The translations under genes and the position numbers were made by a program. Below, piece after piece: positions 4,341-26,864 of a stretch of DNA of 64,000 nt (its first letter is position 1; the number at the start of each line of letters is the position of its first letter). The stretch lies in NCBI GenBank assembly GCA_947471565.1, contig CANIVT010000001.1:132612-196611 (forward strand), read 5' to 3'. This DNA comes from Spartobacteria bacterium (GTDB lineage Bacteria > Verrucomicrobiota > Verrucomicrobiia > Chthoniobacterales > UBA6821). Below the pieces are notes generated by a model, which had not been told where the DNA came from, searched no databases, and saw nothing but the letters and a program-made list of their open reading frames with translations.

Positions 4341-4490
4341 ATGCTCTACACAATCGCCATTGTTCTTCTTGTCCTCTGGGCGCTCGGACTCGTCAGCGCC
4401 TACACGATGGGAGGATTTATCCACATCCTGCTTGTCTTCGCCTTGGTGGTACTTCTTATCCAGATCATCCAGGGAAGAAAGATCGGCTGA
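4341..4490 (+). CDS. lmo0937-family small membrane protein
   Basis: 49-aa ORF, below the track cutoff: MLYTIAIVLLVLWALGLVSAYTMGGFIHILLVFALVVLLIQIIQGRKIG. This is the typical two-helix sequence of the lmo0937 family (MLxTI..IL.VLWLLG....GG.IHILLV.A....I..I.GR). Confidence 0.7.
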   Translation: MLYTIAIVLLVLWALGLVSAYTMGGFIHILLVFALVVLLIQIIQGRKIG

Positions 4491-4513
4491 GATGGCTGCT
4501 TGGCCATCATTCC

Positions 4514-4597
4514 ATGGTAAAAAATCCACAAAACCTCCTCTTGGCAGCAGGCGTCATCCTGACTGCGCTTGCCTGCATTTTATTTGGAGTGGGATGA
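4514..4597 (+). CDS. possible 27-aa single-TM peptide
   Basis: MVKNPQNLLLAAGVILTALACILFGVG. It starts 24 nt after the lmo0937-like gene and lies in the same small-peptide cluster. No other support. Confidence 0.2.
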   Translation: MVKNPQNLLLAAGVILTALACILFGVG

Positions 4598-4651
4598 ATT
4601 AGCCGCTTTTCTCTTCGCCTTTCAGAACACTGTGAGCAGTCTTATAAAACA

Positions 4652-5185
4652 ATGAAATCAGCCCTCTTCACGATCCTACTTTGCCCCGTGGTACTCTTAT
4701 GCGGCTGTCTGTCGACCTCACCTAAAAAGGTCCCCCTGAAAACGGTCGCTTACGTCGATCTGCCCCGCTTCATGGGGGACTGGTATGTCATCGGAACGAT
4801 CCCGTGGATCGTGGAGAAGAACAACGTGGGAACAATGGATATTTACAAGATGAGGCCAGATGGTCGCATCGACATCACCTACGCTTTTCACAAGAATGAT
4901 CTCTCGGCAAAGCACCAAGAGATGCACGCAGTTGGCACCGTGTTGGATACAAAGACCAATGCCCGGTGGGGAGTCCAGTTTATCTGGCCTTTCAAAGCTC
5001 CTTACCTCGTCATCGATCTGGCACCTGATTACAGCACGACGACGATTGGCTACCCATCGAGGGATCTGATTTGGATTATGGCCCGTACACCGACACTGCC
5101 TGAAAGCACGTATCAGGAACTGCTTCAGAAGGCATCCAACCAAGGATACGATATCCATCGGATTGTTAAAGTTCCCCAGAAATAG
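4652..5185 (+). CDS. blc: bacterial lipocalin (outer-membrane lipoprotein Blc family)
   Basis: Lipoprotein signal ending LLCGC, and the lipocalin motif VDLPRFMGDWYVIGTIP. 177 aa. Confidence 0.8.
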   Translation: MKSALFTILLCPVVLLCGCLSTSPKKVPLKTVAYVDLPRFMGDWYVIGTIPWIVEKNNVGTMDIYKMRPDGRIDITYAFHKNDLSAKHQEMHAVGTVLDTKTNARWGVQFIWPFKAPYLVIDLAPDYSTTTIGYPSRDLIWIMARTPTLPESTYQELLQKASNQGYDIHRIVKVPQK

Positions 5186-5285
5186 GGTCTTTGATTGTTA
5201 GGATGACGGACTGATTACCCGTGGCCGCGTGTCTTATCGCCTGGAGTTGATGGATCCCCTCCATCGCTGCAAGAATCTCCCGCGC

Positions 5286-5663
5286 ATGATCCGTTTCCTC
5301 GCCATCCTGCTCTTCACGGCTTCCTGCGCCTATGCCGGTGATGTCATTGCGGTGATCAAGAGTCCCTCCACGGTCTACCGCCTGAAGGGATCGAACGGCG
5401 CCTTTCTCGGGCAGATCCAGCCTTCCGGAGGTGCGATCTCCGTCGGTTGCGACGGGGAGACGATCGCGGTGCTGAATTCGCACGGCGTCGTGAACCGCTA
5501 CAATGCCGAGACGGGGGCCTTCATCGGACAGAATCAGCCCAGCGGAGGAGGCCCCTTAACCGACGTTCAGGTCTCCGGCGGCGTGATGATCGTCCGCTCA
5601 CCTCATCTTGCCCGCCGCTACAGCGCACGCACGGGTGCCTTCTTGGGACAGAGCCAGTTCTGA
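5286..5663 (+). CDS. secreted protein with three ~36-aa internal repeats, hypothetical
   Basis: Start moved to the ATG at 5286 (MIRFLAILLFTASCAYA signal). There are three repeats of the form Y(R/N)xxxxxGAF(L/I)GQxQPSGG. Confidence 0.5.
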   Translation: MIRFLAILLFTASCAYAGDVIAVIKSPSTVYRLKGSNGAFLGQIQPSGGAISVGCDGETIAVLNSHGVVNRYNAETGAFIGQNQPSGGGPLTDVQVSGGVMIVRSPHLARRYSARTGAFLGQSQF

Positions 5664-5665
5664 GC

Positions 5666-6370
5666 ATGACATTGCCGGAACTTAAAACAGTGCTCCGGTC
5701 CATGGCCTCGCCCGAAAGGGAGAAGGTGACACGGAGTTTCTTCAAGACAGGACCCGGGGAGTATTCCGAGGGAGACAAGTTCCTTGGGATCCGGATTCCC
5801 GATCTGCGGTCACTGCTCAAGAAAGCCGATGCCATTTCCTTGAAGGAGGCCCTGACTCTGCTCCGCTCAGAGTGGCATGAGGAACGCTTCACGGCTCTCC
5901 TGCTACTGGAGCGTCGCTTCGAGCATGCTGAGGAGGAATCAGTACGGGAGGAGATCGTGAAGGCCTATCTCGCCAATACCCGTTGGGTGAACAACTGGGA
6001 CCTCGTTGATACGAGTGCCCCGACCATCCTCGGTGCATGGTTGCTCCCTCGGAAGCGGTCGGTGCTAGATGAGTTGGTTCGCTCCGAAAATCTCTGGGAA
6101 AGACGGATTGCGATCGTTGCCACGCAGACACTGATCCGTGCGGGCGAGTTCCGGGAGACGCTCCAACTCACCGAGCGACTGTTTGGTGATCCCGAAGACC
6201 TGATGCATAAGGCCTGCGGCTGGATGCTCCGCGAGGTGGGGAAGATGGACAGAAATATCCTGATCTCCTTTCTGGAAAATCACGCGCCACGGATGCCCCG
6301 GACGATGCTCCGCTACGCCATCGAGCGCTTTCCAGATCAGGAACGCAGAGTCTGGCTTGCGCTCCGCTAA
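5666..6370 (+). CDS. DNA alkylation repair protein (AlkD-like HEAT-repeat family)
   Basis: The ATG at 5666 (MTLPELKTVL...) follows the upstream stop. Diagnostic motifs: FFKTGPGEYSEGDKFLGIRIPDLR, NNWDLVD, LWERRIAIV, KACGWMLRE. The track's upstream extension overlaps the previous gene and is Arg-rich junk. Confidence 0.75.
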   Translation: MTLPELKTVLRSMASPEREKVTRSFFKTGPGEYSEGDKFLGIRIPDLRSLLKKADAISLKEALTLLRSEWHEERFTALLLLERRFEHAEEESVREEIVKAYLANTRWVNNWDLVDTSAPTILGAWLLPRKRSVLDELVRSENLWERRIAIVATQTLIRAGEFRETLQLTERLFGDPEDLMHKACGWMLREVGKMDRNILISFLENHAPRMPRTMLRYAIERFPDQERRVWLALR

Positions 6371-6385
6371 TACCCCGGACGGAGC

Positions 6386-7093
6386 CTACTCCATGAAGCG
6401 GGTGAATTCCGCAGCTGTTTCCCTCTCGGTGCGCAGGGTGTTTTCGATCCTGGAGGTATCCTCGTAACCAAGGGCCATGCCGCAGACGATCATCCGCTCG
6501 TCGGGAATCTCCAGATGCCGGGCAATGAGGCGGTGGTATTTGCAGAAGGCCGCCTGCGGGCAGGTGTCGAGGCCGCGCGCCTTGGCGGCGATCATCACGT
6601 TCTGGAGGAACATCCCATAGTCGAGCCAACTGCCCTGTCCCATCACGCGGTCGATCGTGAAGAAGAGTCCGACCGGTGCCCCGAAGAAGGTGTAATTCCG
6701 CGCGAACTGCCGGTTCATGAGTTCCCGTTCCCCCTTGGCGATGCGAAGTAGTCCGTAGAGGTCGTAGCCGACCTTACGACGACGATCGATGTAGGGAGGA
6801 ATCCACTTTTCCGGGTAGTAGGAGTATTCCTGCGTGTGCTCTGCGTCGCGGGTGGGATCGAGTGCGATCTCGACCAGTTCTTTGGAGAGGGCTTCCTTTT
6901 TTTGTCCGGTTATGACGATGGCCTGCCACGGCTGGGTGTTGGTGCCCGAGGGGGCGCGGGCTGCTACATCAAGGATCTCCAGGATGGTTTCCCTAGGTAC
7001 AGGCGTCGGCAGGAATGCGCGGATCGACCGGCGCTCCCGGATCACCCCGTCAACAATTGTCGTGATCTCGGATTGGGAAGGAGTTCTGCTCAT
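6386..7093 (-). CDS. nitroreductase-family oxidoreductase
   Basis: RRSIRAFLPTPV and TNTQPW are nitroreductase-fold motifs. The ATG at 7093 is preferred over the upstream TTG. Confidence 0.75.
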   Translation of the reverse strand: MSRTPSQSEITTIVDGVIRERRSIRAFLPTPVPRETILEILDVAARAPSGTNTQPWQAIVITGQKKEALSKELVEIALDPTRDAEHTQEYSYYPEKWIPPYIDRRRKVGYDLYGLLRIAKGERELMNRQFARNYTFFGAPVGLFFTIDRVMGQGSWLDYGMFLQNVMIAAKARGLDTCPQAAFCKYHRLIARHLEIPDERMIVCGMALGYEDTSRIENTLRTERETAAEFTRFME

Positions 7094-14803: not shown

Positions 14804-16408
14804 ATGGCCCGTCCCAAGAAATCTTCCTCTTCCTCTTCCAAGGACTCCTCGGCCAATCTCGGCTTTGAGGCGAAGCTCTGGCTCGCCGCTGACAAGCTCC
14901 GGAACAACATGGATGCGGGCGAGTACAAGCACGTCGTCCTTGGCCTCATCTTCCTGAAGTACATCTCCGACAGCTTCGAGGAGCATCATGCCAAGCTCAT
15001 TGAGGGAGAGGGTGAGTACGCCGGGGCCAATCCCGAGGACAAGGACGAGTACCTCGCTGCCAACGTCTTCTGGGTTCCGAAGGAGGCCCGCTGGTCCTTC
15101 CTCCAGGGGAGTGCCAAGCTCCCGTCGATCGGCAAGCTCGTCGACGACGCCATGGTCGCCCTCGAACGGGACAACCCCCGACTCAAGGGCTCCCTGAACA
15201 AGAACTACGGACGCGCCGACCTCGATAAGAACCGCCTCGGCGAGCTCATCGACCTCATCGGCTCCATCCAGCTCGTAGATGCCGCCAGCCGGTCCAAGGA
15301 CCTCCTTGGGCGTGTCTTTGAGTACTTCCTTACTCAGTTCGCCAGTGCCGAGGGTAAGAACGGCGGCCAATTCTACACACCCTCCTGCGTCGTCCGCCTC
15401 CTTGTCGAGATGGTCGCCCCGTACAAGGGACGCATCTACGACCCGGCCTGCGGCTCGGGCGGCATGTTCGTCCAGAGTGAGAAATTCGTGGAATCCCACG
15501 GCGGCAAGCTGGGCGACATCAGCGTCTACGGCCAGGAGAGCAACCCCACCACCCGCCGCCTCGCCATCATGAACCTCGCCCTCCGGGGCATCGAGGCAGA
15601 CTTTGGACCCGAGAATGCAGACACGTTCCGCCGACCACTCCACCCCGACCTCCGGGCTGACTTCGTCCTGGCCAATCCTCCCTTCAACGACTCCGACTGG
15701 TACCGCAAAGACGATGACGTCCGCTGGCAGTATGGCGTCCCGCCTAAGGGGAATGCGAACTTCGCCTGGGTTCAGCACTTCATTCACCACCTTGCCCCAA
15801 AGGGAATGGCCGGCTTCGTTCTCGCGAATGGCTCAATGTCCTCAAACCAATCCGGAGAGGGGGAAATCAGGAAGGCCCTGATTGAGGCAGACCTCGTCGA
15901 CTGCATGGTCGCACTCCCTGGACAGCTCTTCTACTCCACCCAGATCCCCGTCTGCCTCTGGTTCCTCACGAGGAGCAAGAACGATGGAAAGCGCCGTGAC
16001 CGCCGCAAGGAAACCCTCTTCATCGATGCCCGGAGGATGGGCACCCTCATCGACCGTGTCCACCGCGAGCTTACGGAGGCCGACCTCGTGAAGATCGTCT
16101 CCACTTACCACGCATGGAGAGGGGATGAGATTCCTCAGGTTTCAGGTCTCAAGTCTCAGGTTTCCTCGTCGGCCTACGCCGACATCCCCGGCTTCTGCAA
16201 ATCTGCCACCACCGCCGAGATCGCCGCCCATGGTCATGTCCTCACACCTGGCCGCTACGTCGGAGCCGAGGAGATCGAGGATGATGGAGAGCCCTTCGAG
16301 GAGAAAATGCCCCGACTTGTTGCCGAGCTGAATATCCAGTTCGCCGAGTCTGCGAAACTCGAGCTGGCCATCAAGGCCAACCTGAAAGGACTTGGGTATG
16401 AAATCTGA
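14804..16408 (+). CDS. hsdM: type I restriction-modification system, DNA methyltransferase subunit M
   Basis: HsdM N-terminal domain ([32 protein letters not shown]). AdoMet motif [10 protein letters not shown]. Catalytic LANPPFN. Confidence 0.9.
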
Positions 16409-16550: not shown

Positions 16551-17474
16551 ATGAAAAACGAGAAGCGTCATCACACCATCCAAGAACAGGTTCAGCTACT
16601 TCTGGCACGAGGGCTTGAAGGAGATCCTGACCTCATGGCATCTCGTTTGGCCGTGGTGAACTACTACCGACTGAGCGGCTACTGGTTTCCAATGCAAATG
16701 GGGGCTAGTTACCCCGAAATCATCGGCGCTACTCCAGAAACATTCCGGCCCGGATCAACTTTTGAAAACGTCTGGAGGAGATATACCTTTGATCGGGAGT
16801 TGCGACTTCTTGTTCTGGATGCAATTGAGCGATTCGAAGTTGCAGTCAGAACTCAGCTTGCCTACCACCACGCTTTCATCCACGGCCCTTTTGGCTATGC
16901 GAATGACCCAAAATCTAGGCCGAAATTGAAGCGAGAGGATTTTGCCAAATTTTACGCCGGATTACTGGAAGAGTTGGGAAGGAGTAAGGAACAATGCATA
17001 AAACATTATTTTAAGAAATATGGTGATGAACATGATGTTCCGCCCATCTGGCAGGCTGTGGAAGTCATGAGCTTTGGGAACATCGTCACCCTCTATCGGC
17101 ACACAACCAGTAAAGTGAAACAGGGGGTAGCCAGCACCTTTGGTATTCCTGATACCGTGATGGAGTCCTGGTTGCTTTCTCTCAACACCATTCGCAACAT
17201 TTGCGCTCATCACTCCCGGCTTTGGAATCGAGAATTGGGCAATAGGCCGATGATCCCTCGCTTGGAGGAATTTCCCGACTGGCATCTCCCGGTTCAGATC
17301 CGTAATGAGAAATTGTTCGGGATTCTAACCATCCTGAAATACTCCATGAATAGAATTGCCCCTCAGAGCCAGTGGGCACTTCGCTTCCATCAATTTCTCG
17401 CCGACTATCCCGACATCCCCATTGCCGATATGGGGTTCCCTGAGAATTGGGATCAAAACCCGATCTGGAAATGA
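16551..17474 (+). CDS. Abi_2-family (AbiD/AbiF-like) abortive-infection protein
   Basis: HTIQEQVQLLLARGL..., VNYYRLSGYWFP and YTFDRELRLLVLDAIERFEVAVRTQLAY follow the Abi_2 family pattern. The gene is embedded between hsdM and hsdS. Confidence 0.7.
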   Translation: MKNEKRHHTIQEQVQLLLARGLEGDPDLMASRLAVVNYYRLSGYWFPMQMGASYPEIIGATPETFRPGSTFENVWRRYTFDRELRLLVLDAIERFEVAVRTQLAYHHAFIHGPFGYANDPKSRPKLKREDFAKFYAGLLEELGRSKEQCIKHYFKKYGDEHDVPPIWQAVEVMSFGNIVTLYRHTTSKVKQGVASTFGIPDTVMESWLLSLNTIRNICAHHSRLWNRELGNRPMIPRLEEFPDWHLPVQIRNEKLFGILTILKYSMNRIAPQSQWALRFHQFLADYPDIPIADMGFPENWDQNPIWK

Positions 17475-17504: not shown

Positions 17505-18815
17505 ATGGTGACTGAGTTTCAACAGCACGAAGTCGCAAAACTCATCAGCGACGGAACGCTGATGATCAACGACGGCTATCGCGCCAAAAACAGCGAACTG
17601 TCACATGCTGGCATTCCTTTTGCCCGAGCGGGAAACATTGATGGGGGCTTTCATTTTGAGGACTCCGATCGGGTTCCTGCTGAGACTCTTGCAAAAGTGG
17701 GTCAAAAAAAGAGCCAGGCTGGAGATGTAGTTTTTACATCAAAGGGAACAGTAGGACGGTTTGCTTTTGTTCGAGAGCACACCCCAGAGTTTGTCTATTC
17801 GCCTCAACTCTGTTTCTGGCGCTCCTTAGATGCCTCCCTCATCGACCCTAGATGGCTCTTCTACTGGATGAATGGTCGGGAGTTCTATCTTCAGTTCAAA
17901 GGCGTATCAGGACAGACCGACATGGCAGAGTATGTCAGTCTTCGTGACCAGCGGGCCATGAAGATGACCCTCCCACCCCTCTCCGAGCAGAAGCGAATTG
18001 CGGAAGTGTTGGGAGCTCTGGATGACAAGATCGAACTGAACCTGAGGATGAATGCCACGCTTGAGGCCACCGCCCGAGCCCTCTTCCAGAGCTGGTTCAT
18101 CGACTTCGATCCCGTCCGCGCCAAGCTCGACGGCCGAAAGCCCTCCGGCATCGATCCAGCCACCGCAACCCTCTTCCCCGACTCCTTCGAAGAATCCCCC
18201 CTCGGCCACATCCCCAAAGGGTGGGAAGTCCGACCACTAGCCAGTTTAACAACATATCTTAGCCGTGGTATCGGCCCCTCATACCTTGAACAGGGAGGGG
18301 TGTGCGTTCTGAATCAGAAATGCGTTCGTGACCATCGAGTAGATTTTACCAAATCCCGAAGACACGATTCCGTAAAAAAGCCCATCAATAAGCGCGGTTT
18401 GCAGCTTCACGATGTCTTGGTGAACTCTACTGGAATGGGAACGCTTGGACGAGTAGCTCAACTCTTTTATTTGCCTGAAGCGACAATTGTAGACTCGCAC
18501 GTCACCATCGTGCGTGCGGCCTCAAATACTGATCCATTCTTTCTAGGCATTAACCTGACTGGACGTGAAACTGAGATCGAGGAGTTAGGGGAAGGTTCTA
18601 CCGGTCAAACTGAACTTAGCCGCATAAGGCTAGGAGGACTTAAACTCATTACTCCTTCGTTTGACCTTCAAAAGGCGTTTGGATCAGCAGTTGCTCCACT
18701 CCTGATGAGTATGTCTGAAAACGAAAAGCAATCCCGCACCCTATCCACCCTCCGCGACACCCTCCTCCCAAAACTCCTGAGCGGGGAGTTGAGCGCAAAA
18801 GCACTTCAGATATAA
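17505..18815 (+). CDS. hsdS: type I restriction-modification system, specificity subunit S
   Basis: Two target-recognition domains are separated by conserved helices (LPPLSEQKRIAEVLGALDDKIELN... and ...LSTLRDTLLPKLLSGEL). AGGAGG lies 9 nt upstream of the ATG. Confidence 0.85.
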   Translation: MVTEFQQHEVAKLISDGTLMINDGYRAKNSELSHAGIPFARAGNIDGGFHFEDSDRVPAETLAKVGQKKSQAGDVVFTSKGTVGRFAFVREHTPEFVYSPQLCFWRSLDASLIDPRWLFYWMNGREFYLQFKGVSGQTDMAEYVSLRDQRAMKMTLPPLSEQKRIAEVLGALDDKIELNLRMNATLEATARALFQSWFIDFDPVRAKLDGRKPSGIDPATATLFPDSFEESPLGHIPKGWEVRPLASLTTYLSRGIGPSYLEQGGVCVLNQKCVRDHRVDFTKSRRHDSVKKPINKRGLQLHDVLVNSTGMGTLGRVAQLFYLPEATIVDSHVTIVRAASNTDPFFLGINLTGRETEIEELGEGSTGQTELSRIRLGGLKLITPSFDLQKAFGSAVAPLLMSMSENEKQSRTLSTLRDTLLPKLLSGELSAKALQI

Positions 18816-18824
18816 AGGACTCTA

Positions 18825-19580
18825 GTGATTTCTTCCGTAACGATTGTTGAAGTGCTGGAAAGAGCCCAACAGGGAATCACCAAGCCGTTTCTTTGCCGAG
18901 GTGATGATGACAGGCTTTACTACGTTAAAGGGAGGGCAGCCGGTTGTCGTTCTCTCTGTTGTGAGTGGATTGCAGGGAATCTTGCTAGAGACGTAGGCTT
19001 ACCAATACCCGAGTTTTTGATTGCGGAAGTGCCAGAGACTTTGGTGAGGGATAGCTCCCATTCCGAAATCAATGATCTCGGTTCTGGCTTTGTATTTGCA
19101 TCTTTACGAGTTGAGGGAGCACAGGAAATAACATGGCCAGAAGCCCAGGGATGTAAGATAGATGAAAAGGCATTGGTTCTTATCTTCGATTGGTGGGTGC
19201 AAAACGAGGATCGCTCTCTTTCAGTACATGGAGGAAACCCTAACCTCCTCACAACACCTTATAAAAATAAGGATATTAAATTATGGGTTTTCGACTTTAA
19301 TCTGGCTTTTGATCTCAATTTCTCAGAGGAGAAATTCAGATCAAATCATCTATTTTATGACCTTCTGTCTGAATGGCCATTGGGTTTTCGCCAGAACGTG
19401 ACTGGAAAGATGAAGGTTGCTGTTGAGCGTCTTGATGAGCTGTTTGCAGCCCTTCCTGAGGAGTGGCTCTATTTTCAGGGGGATAAAAATCTTGCGGTGC
19501 ATTTGGATAAAAATCTGGTATCAGTTATTCTCTCCATACCGTTCACCGAACCCGACCGTTTTTGGAAAAGCCTGCTATGA
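18825..19580 (+). CDS. short HipA-like (PI3/4-kinase-fold) kinase, kinase core only
   Basis: 251 aa from a GTG 9 nt after hsdS. Motifs: RLYYVKG (Lys), FDWWVQNEDRSLSVHGGNPNLL (DRH-x-x-N-like catalytic loop) and LWVFDFNLAF (DFG-like). It lacks the HipA N-terminal domains. Confidence 0.6.
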   Translation: MISSVTIVEVLERAQQGITKPFLCRGDDDRLYYVKGRAAGCRSLCCEWIAGNLARDVGLPIPEFLIAEVPETLVRDSSHSEINDLGSGFVFASLRVEGAQEITWPEAQGCKIDEKALVLIFDWWVQNEDRSLSVHGGNPNLLTTPYKNKDIKLWVFDFNLAFDLNFSEEKFRSNHLFYDLLSEWPLGFRQNVTGKMKVAVERLDELFAALPEEWLYFQGDKNLAVHLDKNLVSVILSIPFTEPDRFWKSLL

Positions 19581-20410
19581 ACCGCCCTGTCAAATATGCC
19601 TGCAATTATGCGGTGCTTCGATTCCGTCCCTACCCGGAAACGGCAGAGTTCGTGAATCTGGGGGTTGTGATGCACTGCCCAATGCTGGGTTTTTTCGATA
19701 CTCAGATTGAAACCCATAAAGTCGCAAGGGTCACAAATTTCTTTCCAGAGTTAGATCGTAAGACCTTTGCGGCGGCACGGAGGACAATTTTGGAAGAGGT
19801 GGATCGGATTAAAACAATGATTGCTCATCAAAAAGATGTTGAGGCTGGGCGCATCTTATTTGGTGAGTTGGTTCGTCCGCGTGAAGCGGTATTCCGCTTT
19901 GGAGAAATTCGCACGATTCTAACGGATGATCCAACTACTCTGGCTGGACACCTTTTTGCACAATATGTGCTTCGTCATTTTGCACAGGTCAAAGAGTATC
20001 AAGAAAACGTGATGGCTGATCGCTTCTTTAAGGCATTAAAGGAGTTTCGCCCGAACCAAACTTTTCATCGCAATAAAGCCGTAGGGACAGAAGAGTATCG
20101 AATTCGGATTCCAATATGTTCTGATTGGCGGAATCCAGAAGGTGTTCCCATGCGAGCCGTCAAGCCGTTGGATCTACAGAAGAAAGAGACTACTGATATC
20201 ATTGAGCATGGCGATTTGTGGGCTCAGCGACTTCGTAGGTTACGAATGGTAGAAAGACTTCCAGAAAGATTAATTTTTGCCGTAAGGCATCCAAAAGATA
20301 TTGCCGGTAAAAAAGCGGCTGGAGATGTGTTGGCGTCATTAAAAGACGCAGGGGGAATTTTGGTGGACGCTGCAGATACAGAAAGAATTCTCGAATTAGC
20401 AGCAGACTAA
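19577..20410 (+). CDS. DUF3037-like protein, function unknown
   Basis: The ATG at 19577 overlaps the kinase stop (ATGA). The N-terminus VKYACNYAVLRFRPYPETAEFVNLGVVM fits the pattern Y.YAV.R..P....EF.N.GV that I associate with DUF3037. 277 aa. Confidence 0.6.
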   Translation: MNRPVKYACNYAVLRFRPYPETAEFVNLGVVMHCPMLGFFDTQIETHKVARVTNFFPELDRKTFAAARRTILEEVDRIKTMIAHQKDVEAGRILFGELVRPREAVFRFGEIRTILTDDPTTLAGHLFAQYVLRHFAQVKEYQENVMADRFFKALKEFRPNQTFHRNKAVGTEEYRIRIPICSDWRNPEGVPMRAVKPLDLQKKETTDIIEHGDLWAQRLRRLRMVERLPERLIFAVRHPKDIAGKKAAGDVLASLKDAGGILVDAADTERILELAAD

Positions 20411-20421
20411 ATTGACTGCTG

Positions 20422-20541
20422 ATGAGCGGTCTGAACGAATCCCATCTCGAGGAGGCCGCGCTGGAGTGGCTGGCTGAGCTGGGCTATGCCCTCGGCCACG
20501 GGCCCGACATGGCACTGGGGAAATTCCTGATTCCTGACTGA
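20422..20541 (+). pseudogene. hsdR 5' stub (39 codons), duplicate of the start of the intact hsdR
   Basis: [33 protein letters not shown]... compared with Hsd[33 protein letters not shown].... Nt 20431-20514 align with 23712-23795 at 78/84 identity, and all 6 differences are synonymous. The stub then diverges and stops. Confidence 0.85.
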
Positions 20542-20557
20542 TTAATAGGAGAATCCC

Positions 20558-21868
20558 ATGAGCGACGAGACCCCTCAGAAAGAACTCACCCGCGAGGAAC
20601 TCTACGAGAAGGTCTGGTCGACTCCAGGGACGAAACTAGCAGAGGAACTGGGGATCTCGGATGTGGCGATCACGAAGCGCTGCAAGAAGCTGAATGTCCC
20701 CCGTCCCTCCCGCGGCTACTGGGCAAAGCTGGCGGCAGGGAGGAAATCCCCGAAGCTCCCGCTCCCTCCCACACCTGATGAGGTCTTTCTCAAGTCGGCG
20801 GAGCAATCTGTCGGCAATGAGCTTTCCCTGCCTGAATCCATGGAATCCCTTCATGAGCTTGCCGCCGCGCTGATCGCTAAGATCAAGAAGGCACATGTCG
20901 ATTCTGACAAGCGAGCCAGCTTTTACGGTGATCGCACGCTACCGGAGGTCAAGGTGACGAAGGCTCAGGCGGAGCGAGCGGCACAGGCATTCCATGTGAT
21001 TCTTCAGAAGGTGGAGCCGCTGGGGATTACGTTCCGGAAGGCCCAGAGTTCCTATGGCCCCGCCTATTTCCAGAAAAGCCATGACCGGCTGTATCTCAAG
21101 ATCGAGGAGGAGATGATCGAGAAGACACCTACAGCGAGGCGGAGTCGGTATTCCGGATATGGCTATGGACTGAGGGAGGAGAAGGTTCCCTCGGGGCGGC
21201 TGATCTTTTCCCTCAAGACGGATCGCTACGGCTCGAGTGATGAGAAGGAGTTCACCGAGAGCGAGAGGCTGCCTCTCGATAAGGTGCTCGCCCGCGTGGT
21301 CAACGAGATCCGCAGTCACTATGTGGCCGCGCAGAAGCGGCGGAAGGCCGAGGCCATCCAGCGGGAGAAGGATCGGATCGAATCGGAAATTCGCCATAAG
21401 AAATATCTCGAGGAGAGGGCCATCAAGGAAGCAGAGGAGGCGAAGAAGAATCATGCCAAGGCGCTGAAGAAAACTGCCAAGAAGCGGCAGGATGATTTCC
21501 TGAAGGCCTCCGAGTGGTGGAGGATGTTCGAGTCGGCAAATGCATTCATCGTGGCGTGTGAGCACCGATGGAAGGAGAGCCAGAGTGGGGAGCTAACCTC
21601 CGAGCAGGTGGAGTGGATCACATGGGCGCGTAACATCTCAAATGACCTATCCCCGTTTGCCTTGGGGTACCCTGAGCCATCCAAGGATGGAGCCTTCAAC
21701 CCAGAAGAGGTGCCTTTCGGAGGCCCCTATCCTGAGATACGTGACTTTCCCCGGCCCCCGACGATGCCGAAGATCCCGCCTCCTGTCGTCGAGCAGAGAG
21801 GCTATGGCTACTCCTCAACCCCAGCGCCAACCCGCTACCCCTTCTGGCTCAGGCATCAGGGCCGATGA
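20558..21868 (+). CDS. hypothetical protein: N-terminal HTH-like motif, K/E-rich coiled-coil, Pro-rich tail
   Basis: 436-aa ORF with AGGAGA upstream. The N-terminus is ELYEKVWSTPGTKLAEELGISDVAITKRCKKLNVPRPSRGYWAK. The central part is KRRKAEAIQREKDRIESEIRHKKYLEERAIKEAEEAKK. No enzymatic motif recognised. Confidence 0.55.
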   Translation: MSDETPQKELTREELYEKVWSTPGTKLAEELGISDVAITKRCKKLNVPRPSRGYWAKLAAGRKSPKLPLPPTPDEVFLKSAEQSVGNELSLPESMESLHELAAALIAKIKKAHVDSDKRASFYGDRTLPEVKVTKAQAERAAQAFHVILQKVEPLGITFRKAQSSYGPAYFQKSHDRLYLKIEEEMIEKTPTARRSRYSGYGYGLREEKVPSGRLIFSLKTDRYGSSDEKEFTESERLPLDKVLARVVNEIRSHYVAAQKRRKAEAIQREKDRIESEIRHKKYLEERAIKEAEEAKKNHAKALKKTAKKRQDDFLKASEWWRMFESANAFIVACEHRWKESQSGELTSEQVEWITWARNISNDLSPFALGYPEPSKDGAFNPEEVPFGGPYPEIRDFPRPPTMPKIPPPVVEQRGYGYSSTPAPTRYPFWLRHQGR

Positions 21869-21973
21869 GGGTCATTATCACAAATCCCTGATGGAGAGAT
21901 TCATGAGACGAAACTACTAATTATAAACGTTTTAGTAGTTGGCTAGTAGTTACAGGACTATACGGAATATATA

Positions 21974-22019
21974 TCGCCATAACTGGCGAAATATCTTGAT
22001 TAAAGCGATCAATTCGCCA
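21974..22019. promoter_or_regulatory. putative HipB operator half-sites (TCGCCA) upstream of hipB
   Basis: TCGCCA-taac-TGGCGA is an inverted repeat at 21974-21989. A third TTCGCCA lies at 22013-22019, 14 nt before the hipB ATG, in an AT-rich stretch. Confidence 0.3.
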
Positions 22020-22032
22020 TATTTGACGCATT

Positions 22033-22398
22033 ATGAAGATCTCTCTGGAGATGAATGATGGTACGATCCTCCGGGAGCTCGGGGAGAGGCTTGCCCATGC
22101 CCGCTTGGAGAGGAATCTGACGCAGGCGGCGCTGGCCGAGCAGGCCGGAGTCGCCAAGAGGACACTCGAGCGACTGGAGTCGGGTGAGGTGGCGGCTCAG
22201 CTCTCCGCGTTTCTCCGTGTCTGCCGGGTGCTTGGTCTGCTCGATCGCCTCGACGCCCTAATCCCGGAAGCCAAGCCCGGCCCGATGGAGTTGCTGAGGC
22301 TTCAGGGTAGGAAGAGGCAACGTGCCTCCAAGGCCTCTGTCCAGAAATCTGCCAGGGTCAAGGAGGGCTCCCGCTGGAGCTGGGGGGATCCGTCATGA
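22033..22398 (+). CDS. hipB: XRE-family HTH antitoxin (HipB-like)
   Basis: LRELGERLAHARLERNLTQAALAEQAGVAKRTLERLESG is a classic XRE HTH. The stop overlaps the hipA start (ATGA, 22395-22398). Confidence 0.75.
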   Translation: MKISLEMNDGTILRELGERLAHARLERNLTQAALAEQAGVAKRTLERLESGEVAAQLSAFLRVCRVLGLLDRLDALIPEAKPGPMELLRLQGRKRQRASKASVQKSARVKEGSRWSWGDPS

Positions 22399-23699
22399 TC
22401 GCGGAGGTCCGGCTCTGGGGCAGGCGGATCGGTGCTCTCTCTATGGATGAAGGGCGGGAGGTTGCGGCTTTCCAGTATGATCCGGAGTTCGCTGGGAGCG
22501 GGATTGAGATCGCTCCGCTGATGATGCCGCTGGGCGAGCGGGTGCATGAGTTCCCCGCGTTGTCCCGGGAGTCGTTTCACGGTTTGCCCGGAATGCTCGC
22601 GGATTCCCTGCCGGATAAGTTCGGCAATGCGCTGATCAATGCGTGGCTGGCAACGCAAGGGCGGACGCCGGGGAGCTTCGGTGCGCTGGAGCGTCTCTGC
22701 TACACGGGTTCCCGCGGGATGGGTGCGCTGGAGTATCTTCCCGCGCTCGGGCCGAGGCCGCGTCGTGCGGTGAAGGTGCGCATCGATGCCCTGGTCGATC
22801 TGGCCTCGGAGGTGCTCTCCCATCGGGGGGATCTGCAGGGGCATTTTCATGACGAGGGTAAGGCGAAGGCGCTGGCCGATATCCTGCGCGTGGGGACGTC
22901 GGCGGGCGGGGCCCGGGCGAAGGCTGTTATCGCTTGGAATGAGGAGACTCACGAGGTGCGCTCCGGACAGATCGAGGCCGGGGATGGCTTTGGCTACTGG
23001 CTGCTGAAGTTTGACGGGGTCTCGGGCAACCGTGACAAGGAGAATGAGGATCCCCGGGGATACGGGGTGACCGAGTATGCCTATCACCTTATGGCATGCG
23101 CGGCGGGGATCGCGATGAGCGAGTGTCGTCTGATGGAAGAGGGAGAGCGGAGGCATTTCATGACGCGGCGGTTCGACAGGCTGCCGGGTGGGGAGAAGCT
23201 GCACATGCAGTCGCTGGCGGCGCTGGCACATCTCGATTTCAACCGTGCCGGGGCTCATTCATATGAGCAGGCCTTTCTGGTGATCCAGCAACTCGGTCTG
23301 CCGATGGCCTCGGTGGAGGAGCAGTTCCGCCGGATGGCCTTCAACATCGTTGCCCGCAATCAGGACGACCATGTGAAGAATATCGCCTTCCTGATGGATC
23401 AGGATGGGGGGTGGTCGCTTTCGCCTGGCTTCGACCTGACCTACAGCTTCAATCCCGGAGGTGCCTGGACGGCCTCGCACCAGATGACGATGAACGGAAA
23501 GAGGGAGGGGTTCACGAGGGGGGATTTCGACGCCTGTGCCAAGGCGGCTGGAATGAAACGTGGGCGTGCAGGCACAATCCTCGACGAGGTGATCGCCGCC
23601 GTGAAAGACTGGCCACGCTTCGCCATACAGGCGAAGCTCTCGGAGTCGACGATGAGCAAGATCCAGAAGGTCCACCTACTCGATTTTCCGAAACAGTAA
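22395..23699 (+). CDS. hipA: type II toxin-antitoxin system HipA-family serine/threonine kinase toxin
   Basis: 434 aa. N-terminal coupling domain (VRLWGRRIGALSMDEG...FQYDPEF). GLPGMLADSLPDKFGN. Kinase core with ARNQDDHVKNIAF and LSPGFDLTYS. Confidence 0.85.
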   Translation: MIAEVRLWGRRIGALSMDEGREVAAFQYDPEFAGSGIEIAPLMMPLGERVHEFPALSRESFHGLPGMLADSLPDKFGNALINAWLATQGRTPGSFGALERLCYTGSRGMGALEYLPALGPRPRRAVKVRIDALVDLASEVLSHRGDLQGHFHDEGKAKALADILRVGTSAGGARAKAVIAWNEETHEVRSGQIEAGDGFGYWLLKFDGVSGNRDKENEDPRGYGVTEYAYHLMACAAGIAMSECRLMEEGERRHFMTRRFDRLPGGEKLHMQSLAALAHLDFNRAGAHSYEQAFLVIQQLGLPMASVEEQFRRMAFNIVARNQDDHVKNIAFLMDQDGGWSLSPGFDLTYSFNPGGAWTASHQMTMNGKREGFTRGDFDACAKAAGMKRGRAGTILDEVIAAVKDWPRFAIQAKLSESTMSKIQKVHLLDFPKQ

Positions 23700-23705
23700 C
23701 CGCCC

Positions 23706-26700
23706 ATGTCCCTGAACGAATCCCATCTCGAGGAAGCCGCGCTGGAGTGGCTGGCCGAGCTCGGCTATGCCCTCGGCCATGGACCCGACATGGCTCCGGG
23801 AGAGGTTGCTGCCGAGCGGGAGACCTTCTCCGAGGTGGTACTGAAGGGGCGTCTACGTGAGGCGATCCATCGACTCAATCCCGCGATCCCTGCCGAGGCA
23901 CGCGAGGAGGCTCTCAGGAAGGTCCTGCGCCACGAGACGACCTCCCTAATCGGGAATAACCGGGCCTTCCACCATCATCTGCGCGACGGGGTGCCGGTGG
24001 AGTATCGCCGGGCTGATGGATCTATCGCTGGGGATCGGGTACGGCTGGTGGACTTCGCTGATCCTGCCGCCAATGACTGGCTGGCGGTGAATCAGTTCAC
24101 CGTGATCGAGGGCCAGCATAACCGCCGTCCCGATGTGATCCTCTACCTGAACGGTCTGCCTCTCGCCGCGATCGAGCTCAAGAATGCTGCCGATGAGGAG
24201 GCGACGATCTGGAGCGCCTTCTCCCAGCTCCAGACCTACAAGGCGGAGATTCCCTCCCTGATGAACTACAACGAGATCCTCGTGGTCTCCGATGGTCTGC
24301 AGGCCCGGATCGGATCGCTGACGGCGAATCAGGAATGGTTCAAGGTCTGGCGCACGATCGATGGTGACGGGGATGCTCCCAAGAGCGCCCTGGAGCTGGA
24401 GGTGCTGATCCGGGGAGTCTTTGACCGGAAGCGCTTCCTCGGGCTGCTGGAGCATTTCGTGACCTACGAGGAGGACCCTGACAACGGGTCGGTCCATAAG
24501 ATCATTGCTGGGTATCATCAGTTCCACGCGGTGAATGCCGCCGTCGAGGAGACGATCCGTGCAAGCGGGATGGGCGACGAGAACCGAGCCAAGGAAGGAG
24601 ATGGGGCCTACTGGTCGGGTCGCATGGAGGAGGGAGCGCCGGGTGACCGTCGCGCCGGGGTGGTCTGGCACACGCAGGGAAGCGGCAAGAGTTTCTCGAT
24701 GCTTTTTTATGCCGGACGGATGGCCCGTCACCCTGCGATGCAGAATCCGACCCTCATTGTGCTGACCGACCGGAATGATCTCGACGATCAGCTCTTCGGC
24801 CAGTTTCAGCGCTGCCATGAGACGCTGGGTCAGATGCCCATTCAGGCAGAGAGCAGGGAGCATCTCCGAGAACTCCTCAATCGTGCCAGCGGCGGAGTCA
24901 TTTTCACAACGATTCACAAATTCGCCGCTGAGAAAGACTCGGCAAAGAAAGCCCTCTCCGAGCGCCGCAATATCGTCGTCATCGCCGACGAGGCCCATCG
25001 TTCCCAATACGACCTGATAGATGGATTCGCCCGCGACATGAGGGATGCCGTGCCCCATGCCTCGTTCATCGGATTCACCGGGACGCCGATCGAGAAGGCG
25101 GATGCCAATACGCGGGCGATCTTCGGCAACTACATCTCCGTCTATGACATCCAGCGGGCCGTGGCTGATAAAGCAACAGTCCCAATCTACTATGAGAGCC
25201 GGATTGCCAAGCTGGGGCTCAATGCCTCGGAGCTGCCGAAGCTCGACGCGGAGTTCGAGGAGATCACCGAGGGCGAGGAGGAGGGGAGTCGGGAAAAGCT
25301 CAAGACGAAGTGGGCCGCGCTGGAGGCTCTGGTCGGAGATCCGAAGAGGATCGCCCTGATCGCCAAGGATCTCGTGGAGCACTTCGAAAAGCGTCTCGAG
25401 GCGATGGATGGCAAGGCGATGGTCGTCTGCATGAGCCGCCGCATCTGCGTCGATCTCCACGAGGCGATCCTGAAGCTTCGCCCCGAGTGGGCCAGTGCCA
25501 AGGATGACGATTCCGAAGGCGAGAAGGGGAAAGCGTGCGTGGTGAAGGTCGTCATGACCGGAAGTGCCAGCGATGGCCCCGAGTGGCAGCAGCACATCCG
25601 CAACAAGGAGAAGCGCCGAAAGCTCGCCAACCGCTTCAAGGACAGCAAGGACCCCTTCCGTATCGTGATTGTCCGAGACATGTGGCTGACGGGATTCGAC
25701 GCTCCGTGCCTTCACACCATGTATGCCGACAAGCCGATGCGCGGCCACGGGCTTATGCAGGCGATCGCTCGGGTGAACCGGGTCTTCCGCGACAAACCGG
25801 GTGGACTGATTGTCGATTACCTCGGGCTAGCCGATCAACTTAAGCAGGCGCTGGCCACCTACACGGAGAGCGGAGGCCAGGGTCATCCCACCTATGACGA
25901 GAAGCAGGCCATCGCGATCCTTCTGGAGAAGCACCAGATCGCCTCCGACATGCTCCATGGCTACGACTGGTCCAAGTGGGCGACGGGTTCCTCGGCAGAA
26001 AAAATCAAACTCATCCCCGGAGCGCAGGAGCATATTCTGGAACAGGAGGACGGGAAGAAACGCTTCGTCCAGGTCGTGACGGAACTCTCGCGGGCCTTTG
26101 CCCTTTCGGCGGCCAGCGATGAGGCCACGGCCATCCGGGATGACGTCGCCTTCTTCCAGGCCGTACAGGTGGCCCTCAACAAGCAGGAGAGTAAGAGCGG
26201 TAAGAATCCCGAGCAACTCGACGCGGCCGTTCGCCAGCTTGTCTCCAAGGCGATTACGACAGAGGGACAGGTGATCGATGTCTTTACGGCGGCGGGACTA
26301 CCCCGTCCTGACATAGGCATCCTCTCGGACAAGTTCCTCGCCGAGGTGAGGGGGTTGAAGCACAAGAACGTCGCCGCCGAACTGCTGGAGAAGCTCCTCA
26401 AAGATGAGCTCAAGGTCCGATCCAAGCGGAATTTCGTCCAGGCCAAGCAATTCAGCGATAAGCTGAAGCAGACCCTCAACGGCTACCATAACCGCGCCAT
26501 CTCCACGATGGAGGTGATCGAGGAGCTGATCAAGCTGGCCAAGGAACTCGACTCCGCCACCAAGCGGGGCGTCGATCTCGGGCTCACCGATGACGAGGTG
26601 GCTTTCTACGATGCACTCGCCGCCAATGAGTCAGCCGTCCGAGCGCTCGGCAATGAGCAACTCAAGGTGATCGCCAGCGAACTCATCACTCAGGTACGCA

Positions 26701-26864
26701 AGAGTGCCACGATCGACTGGACCCTCCGGGAAAGTGCCCGAGCCAAGATCCGCGTCATCGTGAAGCGCATCCTTAACAAATACGGCTACCCACCAGACCT
26801 CCAGGACCCAGCCGTCCAAACCGTCCTCCAACAGGCCGAACTCCTCTGTGCTGAGGTGGTGTAA
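23706..26864 (+). CDS. hsdR: type I restriction-modification system, endonuclease/helicase subunit R
   Basis: 1052 aa. N-terminal nuclease region ([19 protein letters not shown]). Walker A-like [12 protein letters not shown] box [10 protein letters not shown]. Motif VI-type QAIARVNR. Confidence 0.9.

Follow-up and report, generated by a model that had tools for sequence, protein, structure and literature searches.

A conserved gene embedded with hipBA in a type I restriction-modification operon belongs to an undescribed, mostly verrucomicrobial protein family with a putative DNA-binding head

The DNA analysed here, hereafter called the window, is a stretch of 64,000 nucleotides (nt) from Spartobacteria bacterium (Verrucomicrobiota; GenBank assembly GCA_947471565.1, contig CANIVT010000001.1, positions 132,612 to 196,611 of the forward strand) that carries a type I restriction-modification (R-M) operon. 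The subject of the analysis is an open reading frame (ORF) of 436 amino acids (aa) with an ATG start, located at 20558-21868 (+) inside this operon and designated the target gene. The target gene codes for a full-length protein of an undescribed family, most of whose members are verrucomicrobial, and the neighbourhoods of its relatives show that this family is mobile accessory cargo of defence islands, habitual in the hsdR-proximal slot of verrucomicrobial type I R-M operons. An earlier note, made from the sequence alone, had described the ORF as an orphan travelling with hipBA; its claims are taken up below with the results that bear on them.

The genes of the locus are all on the + strand, in the following order: hsdM (14804-16408), Abi_2 (16551-17474), hsdS (17505-18815), a HipA_2 kinase gene (PF20613, 18825-19580), DUF3037 (19562-20410), a 5' stub of hsdR (20422-20541), the target gene, hipB (22033-22398), hipA (22395-23699) and hsdR (23706-26864). 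Assignments were made with Pfam (HTH_31 for hipB, Couple_hipA and HipA_C for hipA, and HSDR_N, ResIII and T1RH-like_C for hsdR, the last three on the identical gene of locus L006). At least four modules are embedded in the R-M operon: Abi_2, a HipAD-like pair, the target gene and hipBA. The Abi_2 (abortive infection) gene is inserted between hsdM and hsdS, and the overlapping HipA_2 and DUF3037 genes (18825-20410) match PADLOC PDC-M66A/B. GC content is ~45% in the HipA_2/DUF3037 segment, against ~60-65% in hsdM, hipBA and hsdR, and rises to ~58% at the stub, a step that supports a mosaic origin of the locus as judged from composition.

The stub is a 39-aa ORF that aligns to the start of hsdR, is called as a gene in L006 and other loci, and ends 16 nt upstream of the target gene, as the earlier note had said. 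It contains the left copy (20431-20519, +; hsdR codons ~3-32) of an 89-nt direct repeat, whose right copy lies within intact hsdR (23712-23800, +); the two copies, detected by repeat search, are 92% identical with a spacing of 3281. No genes other than the target gene and hipBA lie between them, and these form a unit of 3,281 bp, which bears out the view that they lie together in a segment bounded by hsdR-homology breakpoints. The junction between stub and target gene is common to L082 and L015 (~92% protein identity). Cassettes flanked by hsdR-5' direct repeats (90-96% identity) were found in three independent type I R-M loci: the window, L097 (repeats of 130 and 51 nt, 95-96%, spacing ~1,700, at 4470-4705 and 6202-6395) and L025 (194 nt, 90%, spacing 1,462, at 5126-5319 and 6588-6781, with HipA_2 and DUF3037 inside). 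Such repeats would be the expected product of a single-crossover (Campbell-type) insertion of a circle carrying a copy of the hsdR 5' end, and recombination between them would release the circle again. The hsdR 5' end was also considered as a specially conserved recombination site and rejected: its nucleotide identity between lineages is no higher than that of the rest of hsdR, so it is not a dedicated recombination site. An empty site, free of the target gene and hipBA, was not found, and 24/24 contigs with an identical DUF3037 protein had the same arrangement. Rfam gave nothing relevant in 20300-22200; a consensus scan for promoters and terminators returned no promoter, and its terminator-like matches were the hipB operator palindrome and a site inside a gene.

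An AGGAGA sequence resembling a Shine-Dalgarno site was read 3 nt 5' of the target ATG (20549-20554, +), in agreement with the good ribosome-binding site claimed earlier, and a leader of ~25 nt (CCTGACTGATnAnTAGGAGAATCCC) is common to L016, L082 and L015. The orphan label is contradicted by homology searches. A word-indexed search with the target protein returned at least 283 proteins at E<=1e-3, many of them full-length (430-440 aa, 46-56% identity) and from Chthoniobacter, Terrimicrobiaceae, Pedosphaera and other Verrucomicrobiota; every homologue found in this way is unnamed or 'hypothetical'. An exhaustive HMMER scan, which covered 1.84 billion cluster representatives, yielded 9,853 clusters at E<=1e-3, 3,620 at E<=1e-10 and 103 at E<=1e-30. 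The family itself comprises ~100 clusters at 50% identity, mainly from Verrucomicrobiota and unannotated. Homologues of the target gene measure 430-440 aa at 45-98% identity, and an alignment of 45 of them showed conservation over the whole length, proline-rich tail included. The ratio of non-synonymous to synonymous substitution rates (dN/dS) was 0.10-0.12 against relatives that are 90-93% identical, and the gene is under purifying selection. Full-length alignment and dN/dS together rule out a pseudogene or a degraded fragment of a larger gene, an outcome that the earlier note had named as a possible refutation of its own proposal.

The protein was modelled with AlphaFold2 using the family alignment (mean predicted local distance difference test score (pLDDT) of 81.7 for the full protein). 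The model contains an N-terminal helical bundle at aa 12-59 (helices 12-21, 24-31, 35-44 and 54-59), an alpha/beta domain at ~100-233, a helix at 240-341 and a short helix at 348-363, followed by a less ordered tail. The three peptide stretches that the earlier note had quoted are present verbatim.

A sub-threshold Pfam match, relatives and the model assign the head (aa ~10-60; 20585-20737, +) as an RWP-RK-like helix-turn-helix (HTH) with a conserved P-x-P-x-RGYWAK cap. Pfam RWP-RK (PF02042) matched the target protein at E=0.0067 with 16.7 bits, below the gathering cut-off of 29.3 bits. The same family matched 37 of 59 diverse family members at E<=0.1 (best 5.7e-8), module-only relatives exceeded the cut-off (P0207, 45.2 bits; P0178, 41.5 bits) and one relative carries the PGAP label 'RWP-RK domain-containing protein'; the HTH-like N-terminus proposed earlier is supported by these matches. 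Like RWP-RK proteins, the target has an HTH whose recognition helix (K-R-x-C-K/R) precedes a P-x-R motif. Unlike them, it scores below the cut-off and is unrelated to known members beyond aa ~75, and the RWPxRK signature is absent after the recognition helix (...KRCKKLNVPRPSRGYWAK), where alignment by eye gives PRPSRG, with P-x-R alone kept, followed by an invariant YW. The top PDB sequence match to the target was the HTH of LrpA (E=0.11).

The weaker HMMER matches covered target residues ~8-73 only, at times in 2-4 copies per protein, so the N-terminal motif is a widespread module (~9,800 clusters). The earlier note's remark that such a motif opens many unannotated bacterial proteins was correct: the aa 8-73 module occurs in thousands of proteins, with up to four copies in one. 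In other proteins the module is joined to a serine recombinase, transposase-type HTHs (P0216) or a protein kinase, and it gives a weak match (E=0.0044) to the C-terminal end of a PHROG whose annotation is HNH endonuclease; this pattern of fusions fits a portable, putatively DNA-binding head. Four proteins of ~560-580 aa (P0176, P0178, P0194 and P0202) carry up to four tandem RWP-RK-like HTH modules. Among Gammaproteobacteria, Acidobacteriota and Planctomycetota the modules of these proteins are 50-60% identical, with 45% for one archaeal metagenome-assembled genome, an identity between phyla that is unusually high for an HTH.

The middle domain (aa ~95-235; 20840-21262, +), delimited from the AlphaFold2 domain model and Foldseek, was modelled alone with a pLDDT of 81 and a predicted template modelling score (pTM) of 0.73. 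Foldseek found no structural relative of the isolated domain in PDB (best E 1.2). The HTH and middle domain together (aa 4-250) are common to plasmid proteins of Rhodobacterales, Methylocystis and Chryseobacterium at 25-29% identity.

The next segment is a continuous helix of ~100 residues (aa 240-341; 21275-21580, +; pLDDT 85-94), defined from the model, composition and heptads. In its core (aa 263-312), 56% of the residues are charged and 14% hydrophobic, and opposite charges occupy 26% of the i,i+4 residue pairs. The earlier note had read this region as a K/E coiled coil. That reading is not supported: in the best register only 3/14 heptad a/d positions of this highly charged core are hydrophobic; an ER/K-type single alpha-helix, which would act as a rigid spacer, fits better.

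The C-terminal hallmark module (aa 313-436; 21494-21865, +) was defined from alignments of 45 and 59 sequences. Its helices carry EWWR...CExRW...WxxWA and are followed by a GYPDP...GGPYP...PPTMPKIP...YPFWL tail. GGPYP and PPTMP are invariant or nearly so in the 45-sequence alignment, and all 59 sequences, down to 25% identity, keep W353. The proline-rich tail pointed out earlier is not low-complexity filler; few parts of the family are as well conserved. One relative (P0206) fuses the HTH straight to this module. A search with the C-terminal module alone revealed no new architectures, only family fragments and one decayed copy, in L255. The latter, at 6001-6384, is a 127-aa remnant consisting of the C-terminal module alone, upstream of 23S_rRNA_IVP and an EcoEI-type hsdR, with no hsdM or hsdS upstream; it is present on at least 23 contigs and shows that the trio of family gene, IVP gene and hsdR can decay in place.

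No known enzyme family was found for the target in Pfam, NCBIfam, PADLOC, PHROGs, PDB sequences or Foldseek, in line with the earlier failure to recognise a catalytic motif. Pfam, NCBIfam, PADLOC and PHROGs on the target, and Pfam on 59 relatives, gave only sub-threshold RWP-RK or HTH matches; the PDB sequence-profile search returned nothing below E=0.1; and PADLOC contained no matching defence family, its best hits (E=0.064 and 0.19) both falling on the charged helix. With the full model, Foldseek found no match at E<=0.001 in PDB and BFVD (best BFVD E=0.0039, HTH only). Weak Foldseek matches to 'GcrA' and 'HNH/homing endonuclease' were discarded, being limited to the HTH and not significant.

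Genomic context was compared as follows: loci were collected from GTDB genomes, metagenomes and exact-protein look-ups, and annotated by phmmer against a panel of locus proteins and by Pfam (loci are given L numbers). Full-length family members were grouped into 34 lineages at 85% identity, a closer clade being defined by at least 47% identity to the window protein and distant members by at most 45%. In the closer clade, hsdR or its fragments lie 0-2 genes downstream of the family gene, on the same strand, in 12 of the 17 lineages with enough flank, which answers in the affirmative the earlier question of co-occurrence with type I R-M loci; hsdM and hsdS are upstream wherever the contig extends far enough. 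The window has the same placement, between hsdM/hsdS and hsdR on one strand. The gap to hsdR is 3 nt in four loci (L018, L019, L028 and L090; three lineages at 85%), and in many loci the gap upstream of the family gene is -4 to 20 nt.

The other genes of these operons vary. RhuM overlaps the start of the family gene by 4 nt in L018, L019 and L028 and lies just downstream of it in L001 and L091. Fic is found in L012, L016, L083/84 and L095, 23S_rRNA_IVP in L012, L014, L017 and L255, Schlafen-HATPase_c_4 in L024 and L098, and TIR with PLD in L014; PIN, KilA-N and AAA_13 also occur in closer-clade operons. L022, which belongs to the closer clade and has no hsdR nearby, carries DarTG directly downstream of the family gene. 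The family gene is paired with two HsdR families, of the T1RH-like_C and EcoEI_R_C types. Between L014 and L012 the family proteins are 65% identical and the HsdR proteins 25% (different HsdR families), whereas between the window and L097 the values are 44% and 76%. Protein identity is thus uncoupled from HsdR identity: the family protein does not co-evolve with HsdR, and its gene moves independently of the R-M genes.

Defence, toxin-antitoxin or integrase genes lie within ~6 kb of the family gene in 26/34 lineages, and the gene is also found alone in small islets. Both observations agree with a stand-alone anti-phage or anti-plasmid protein of a new type, a sensor and/or effector residing in defence hotspots. 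So does the company of the HipA_2 and DUF3037 pair with its PDC-M66 match, since DS-6/HipAD, a validated anti-phage system, consists of a HipA-related kinase and a DUF3037/DUF1829 protein (PMC13092281). However, the target has no recognisable effector domain and no PADLOC match, and co-location in hotspots is equally expected of regulators and of mobile-element genes; we consider a stand-alone defence role unlikely, while noting that, if true, it would add a new defence family.

Mobile elements are prominent around the more distant relatives. A tyrosine integrase is nearby in five distant lineages, HNH_2 in three, and AbiEi is also found; plasmid relatives that share the HTH and middle domain adjoin ParB, integrase, AbiEii or ScpB-like genes. 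Taken with the fusions of the HTH module to a serine recombinase and to transposase-type HTHs (P0216), and with the homologous repeats around hsdR cassettes in three loci, these neighbours could point to a DNA-handling protein (maintenance, partition-like or recombination accessory) that helps the cassette or island to persist or move. Yet no recombinase accompanies the family gene in R-M-embedded loci, and the repeats are explained by ordinary homologous recombination at an hsdR 5' end that is not a dedicated site, which leaves this explanation highly improbable. KfrA-type plasmid proteins, which have an N-terminal HTH and a long alpha-helical tail, offer a comparison: the target shares the putative DNA-binding head, the extended helix and the mobile-element context, but it has no sequence or structure match to them (Pfam, Foldseek) and possesses an extra alpha/beta domain and C-terminal module.

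The check for consistent co-occurrence with hipBA gave a negative answer: hipBA is near the family gene in 3/34 lineages, each with a different order and orientation. L020 has hipB-hipA-family gene, with hipA overlapping the family gene by 4 nt; in L114 hipBA is 3 kb away on the opposite strand. The hipBA of both loci is of the same subtype as that of the window (HipA 71-77% identical), and the family proteins are only 33-50% identical to the window protein. In L082 and L015, hipB or the hipB operator follows the family gene. In L016, L083, L084 and L086, which encode a ~90% identical protein, Fic replaces hipBA (hsdS-gene-Fic-hsdR). The hipBA genes also bring their own control element. An operator-like palindrome, TCGCCATAACTGGCGA (TCGCCA-N4-TGGCGA), lies upstream of hipB at 21974-21989, with a partial second copy 40 nt further on (22014-22034); every related hipBA locus (L015, L020, L082 and L114) has it in front of hipB, including L020 and L114, where the family gene is not upstream. 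With its own operator wherever it occurs, hipBA is self-contained, and the target is not its dedicated regulator.

The suggestion that the target gene travels with hipBA therefore holds in part: they share one repeat-bounded unit here, and the same hipBA subtype accompanies the family in L020 and L114, but the association is confined to 3/34 lineages and gives way to Fic in ~90% identical relatives. The further suggestion, that the hipBA cassette has in the target a third component of its own (a regulator, scaffold or sensor), found no specific support. The shared unit, the same-subtype hipBA that adjoins the family gene in L020 and lies 3 kb away in L114, and hipB or its operator in L082 and L015 speak for it; the rarity of the association, the Fic-bearing relatives, the operator and HTH antitoxin that hipBA already possesses, and three different arrangements in three cases make it very unlikely. 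The comparison with HipBST and canonical HipBA is similar, since the target adjoins hipBA, and in L020 the family gene is translationally coupled to hipA, but it is homologous to neither HipS nor HipB. hipBA is one of many alternative neighbours of the family gene, and the link is not obligatory; the tie to the hsdR-proximal slot of type I R-M operons is both firmer and broader, hsdR being the gene that most regularly follows the family gene.

Between the target gene and hipB, ~45 nt after the stop codon, lies an inverted repeat with a third half-site, AACTACTAA-N11-TTAGTAGTT (21912-21951, no strand assigned), recognised by its conservation in the window clade. The repeat proper, at 21912-21940, reads AACTACTAA-TTATAAACGTT-TTAGTAGTT and has perfect 9-bp arms and a fixed 11-nt spacer (AACTACTAATTATAAACGTTTTAGTAGTT). 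A block of 30-32 nt containing it shows 100% identity throughout the window clade, against ~50% identity in the surrounding non-coding DNA. The repeat is kept whether hipB or Fic follows (copies at L016 11362-11390, L084 6038-6066 and L175 12809-12837), with a further variant copy in tandem in L016; outside the window clade, no lineage has it after the family gene. The identical 29-mer occurs in two IMG/VR contigs that show no flanking similarity, and variants with 1-2 mismatches were found in seven other contigs from the same freshwater phage family (~50 kb), in intergenic DNA and at a similar distance from a shared marker gene. Because it lacks a T-run and its arm variants are non-compensatory, the inverted repeat looks like a protein-binding DNA site, a candidate site common to the host locus and the phage. 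It may serve as an operator or as an att core; a check of the phage contig revealed no integrase close to the repeat, so the att-site reading is unproven.

A restriction controller, comparable in function to C-proteins or RptR, would govern the expression of hsdR and the intervening cargo and keep the host protected while specificity or cargo changes. The HTH, the 3-nt gap to hsdR in four loci and the position 0-2 genes upstream of it in 12 lineages, the perfectly conserved inverted repeat between the gene and its variable cargo, and the precedent of RptR, an HTH repressor tied to a type I R-M system with embedded cargo (PMC12255303), all favour such a role. Several features of the family do not fit it. 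In most cases the gene lacks an upstream intergenic region of its own (gaps of -4 to 20 nt in many loci), no flanking motif recurs from lineage to lineage and the inverted repeat is restricted to the window clade; the gene is found with two HsdR families that are unrelated to each other and in many loci that lack R-M; and 436 aa with three extra conserved modules are far beyond the needs of a repressor. RptR itself is a 79-aa protein encoded upstream of hsdM that binds TAGCTA repeats in its own promoter (PMC12255303). The target resembles RptR and the type II C-proteins in being an HTH protein linked to a restriction system and, as with C-proteins, in preceding the nuclease gene, but those proteins have ~80-100 aa and an operator in their own promoter, whereas the target is operon-internal and no cross-lineage operator was found for it. 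A restriction controller is unlikely on balance.

The reading that we prefer is that the target protein is a non-enzymatic, DNA-bound regulator or adaptor of the defence cargo and the hsdR region, and not one specific to hipBA; to this composite statement we give a probability of about 0.55, its descriptive parts being much more secure than its mechanistic part. In mechanistic terms, the HTH would anchor the protein on DNA, the rigid charged helix would hold the C-terminal module ~10 nm or more away, and the conserved proline and aromatic motifs of that module would contact a partner protein.

Several points weigh against this regulator or adaptor role. DNA binding by the HTH and the lack of enzymatic activity are predictions, and the single-helix reading and spacer function of the charged segment are deduced from its composition. 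The middle domain contains conserved acidic residues (D176, E183 and E184 in the 45-sequence alignment), which, together with its unmatched fold, leave room for a catalytic activity that was not detected. R-M genes are missing nearby in five closer lineages and in all distant ones, and with so many lineages of this kind any role cannot depend strictly on HsdR. Finally, no operator was found to be shared across lineages: of the k-mers within 150 nt on either side of the family gene, none was common to more than 5/34 lineages, so that a local operator is not evident.

A bolder reading would make the protein a new kind of DNA-anchored sentinel: the HTH would read a specific site, and the rigid helix and C-terminal docking would couple recognition to HsdR and/or the toxin modules. 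For the window clade, a candidate for that site is the 29-nt inverted repeat, of which the host locus and a freshwater phage family carry identical copies. This reading is quite improbable; if true, restriction and abortive infection would be linked within one operon.

The hsdS-hsdR gap of type I R-M operons is known to receive defence and toxin cargo, and PrrC in the EcoprrI locus is an example of a gene embedded in a type I R-M system. To our knowledge, the cargo described from this gap consists almost entirely of enzymes or toxins, and we know of almost no experimental defence biology in Verrucomicrobiota. A further resident is DarTG2, located between hsdS and hsdR in the RRDM island of enteropathogenic E. 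coli (EPEC) (PMC12255303), and the HipA-like kinase with DUF3037 (DS-6/HipAD, PMC13092281) is another accessory module of R-M operons. The target resembles R-M-embedded accessory and abortive-infection genes in its position within the operon, on the same strand and upstream of hsdR, in its recurrence in independent lineages, in its mobility relative to the R-M genes and in sharing its slot with known toxin and defence modules. It differs from them in having no toxin or enzymatic domain (an HTH with non-catalytic-looking modules instead) and in its absence from PADLOC; its family is largely confined to Verrucomicrobiota. What is new is a conserved, apparently non-enzymatic family, predicted to bind DNA and with two modules of unrecognised fold, that is among the most regular residents of the hsdS-hsdR slot in Verrucomicrobiota. 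Should it regulate or tether cargo and the hsdR region, it would show how composite restriction and abortive-infection operons are coordinated. The inverted repeat after the gene and the repeat-bounded cassette provide testable handles.

A further neighbour was seen among the distant members. In five distant lineages, an ankyrin-repeat gene of ~390 aa abuts the 3' end of the family gene (L103 11308-12486(-), L112, L113, L114 11791-12972(-) and L122 7768-8925(-)). The two genes are convergent with gaps of -4 to 11 nt, a tyrosine integrase is often near, and the ankyrin-repeat gene may be a lineage-specific partner of these family members.

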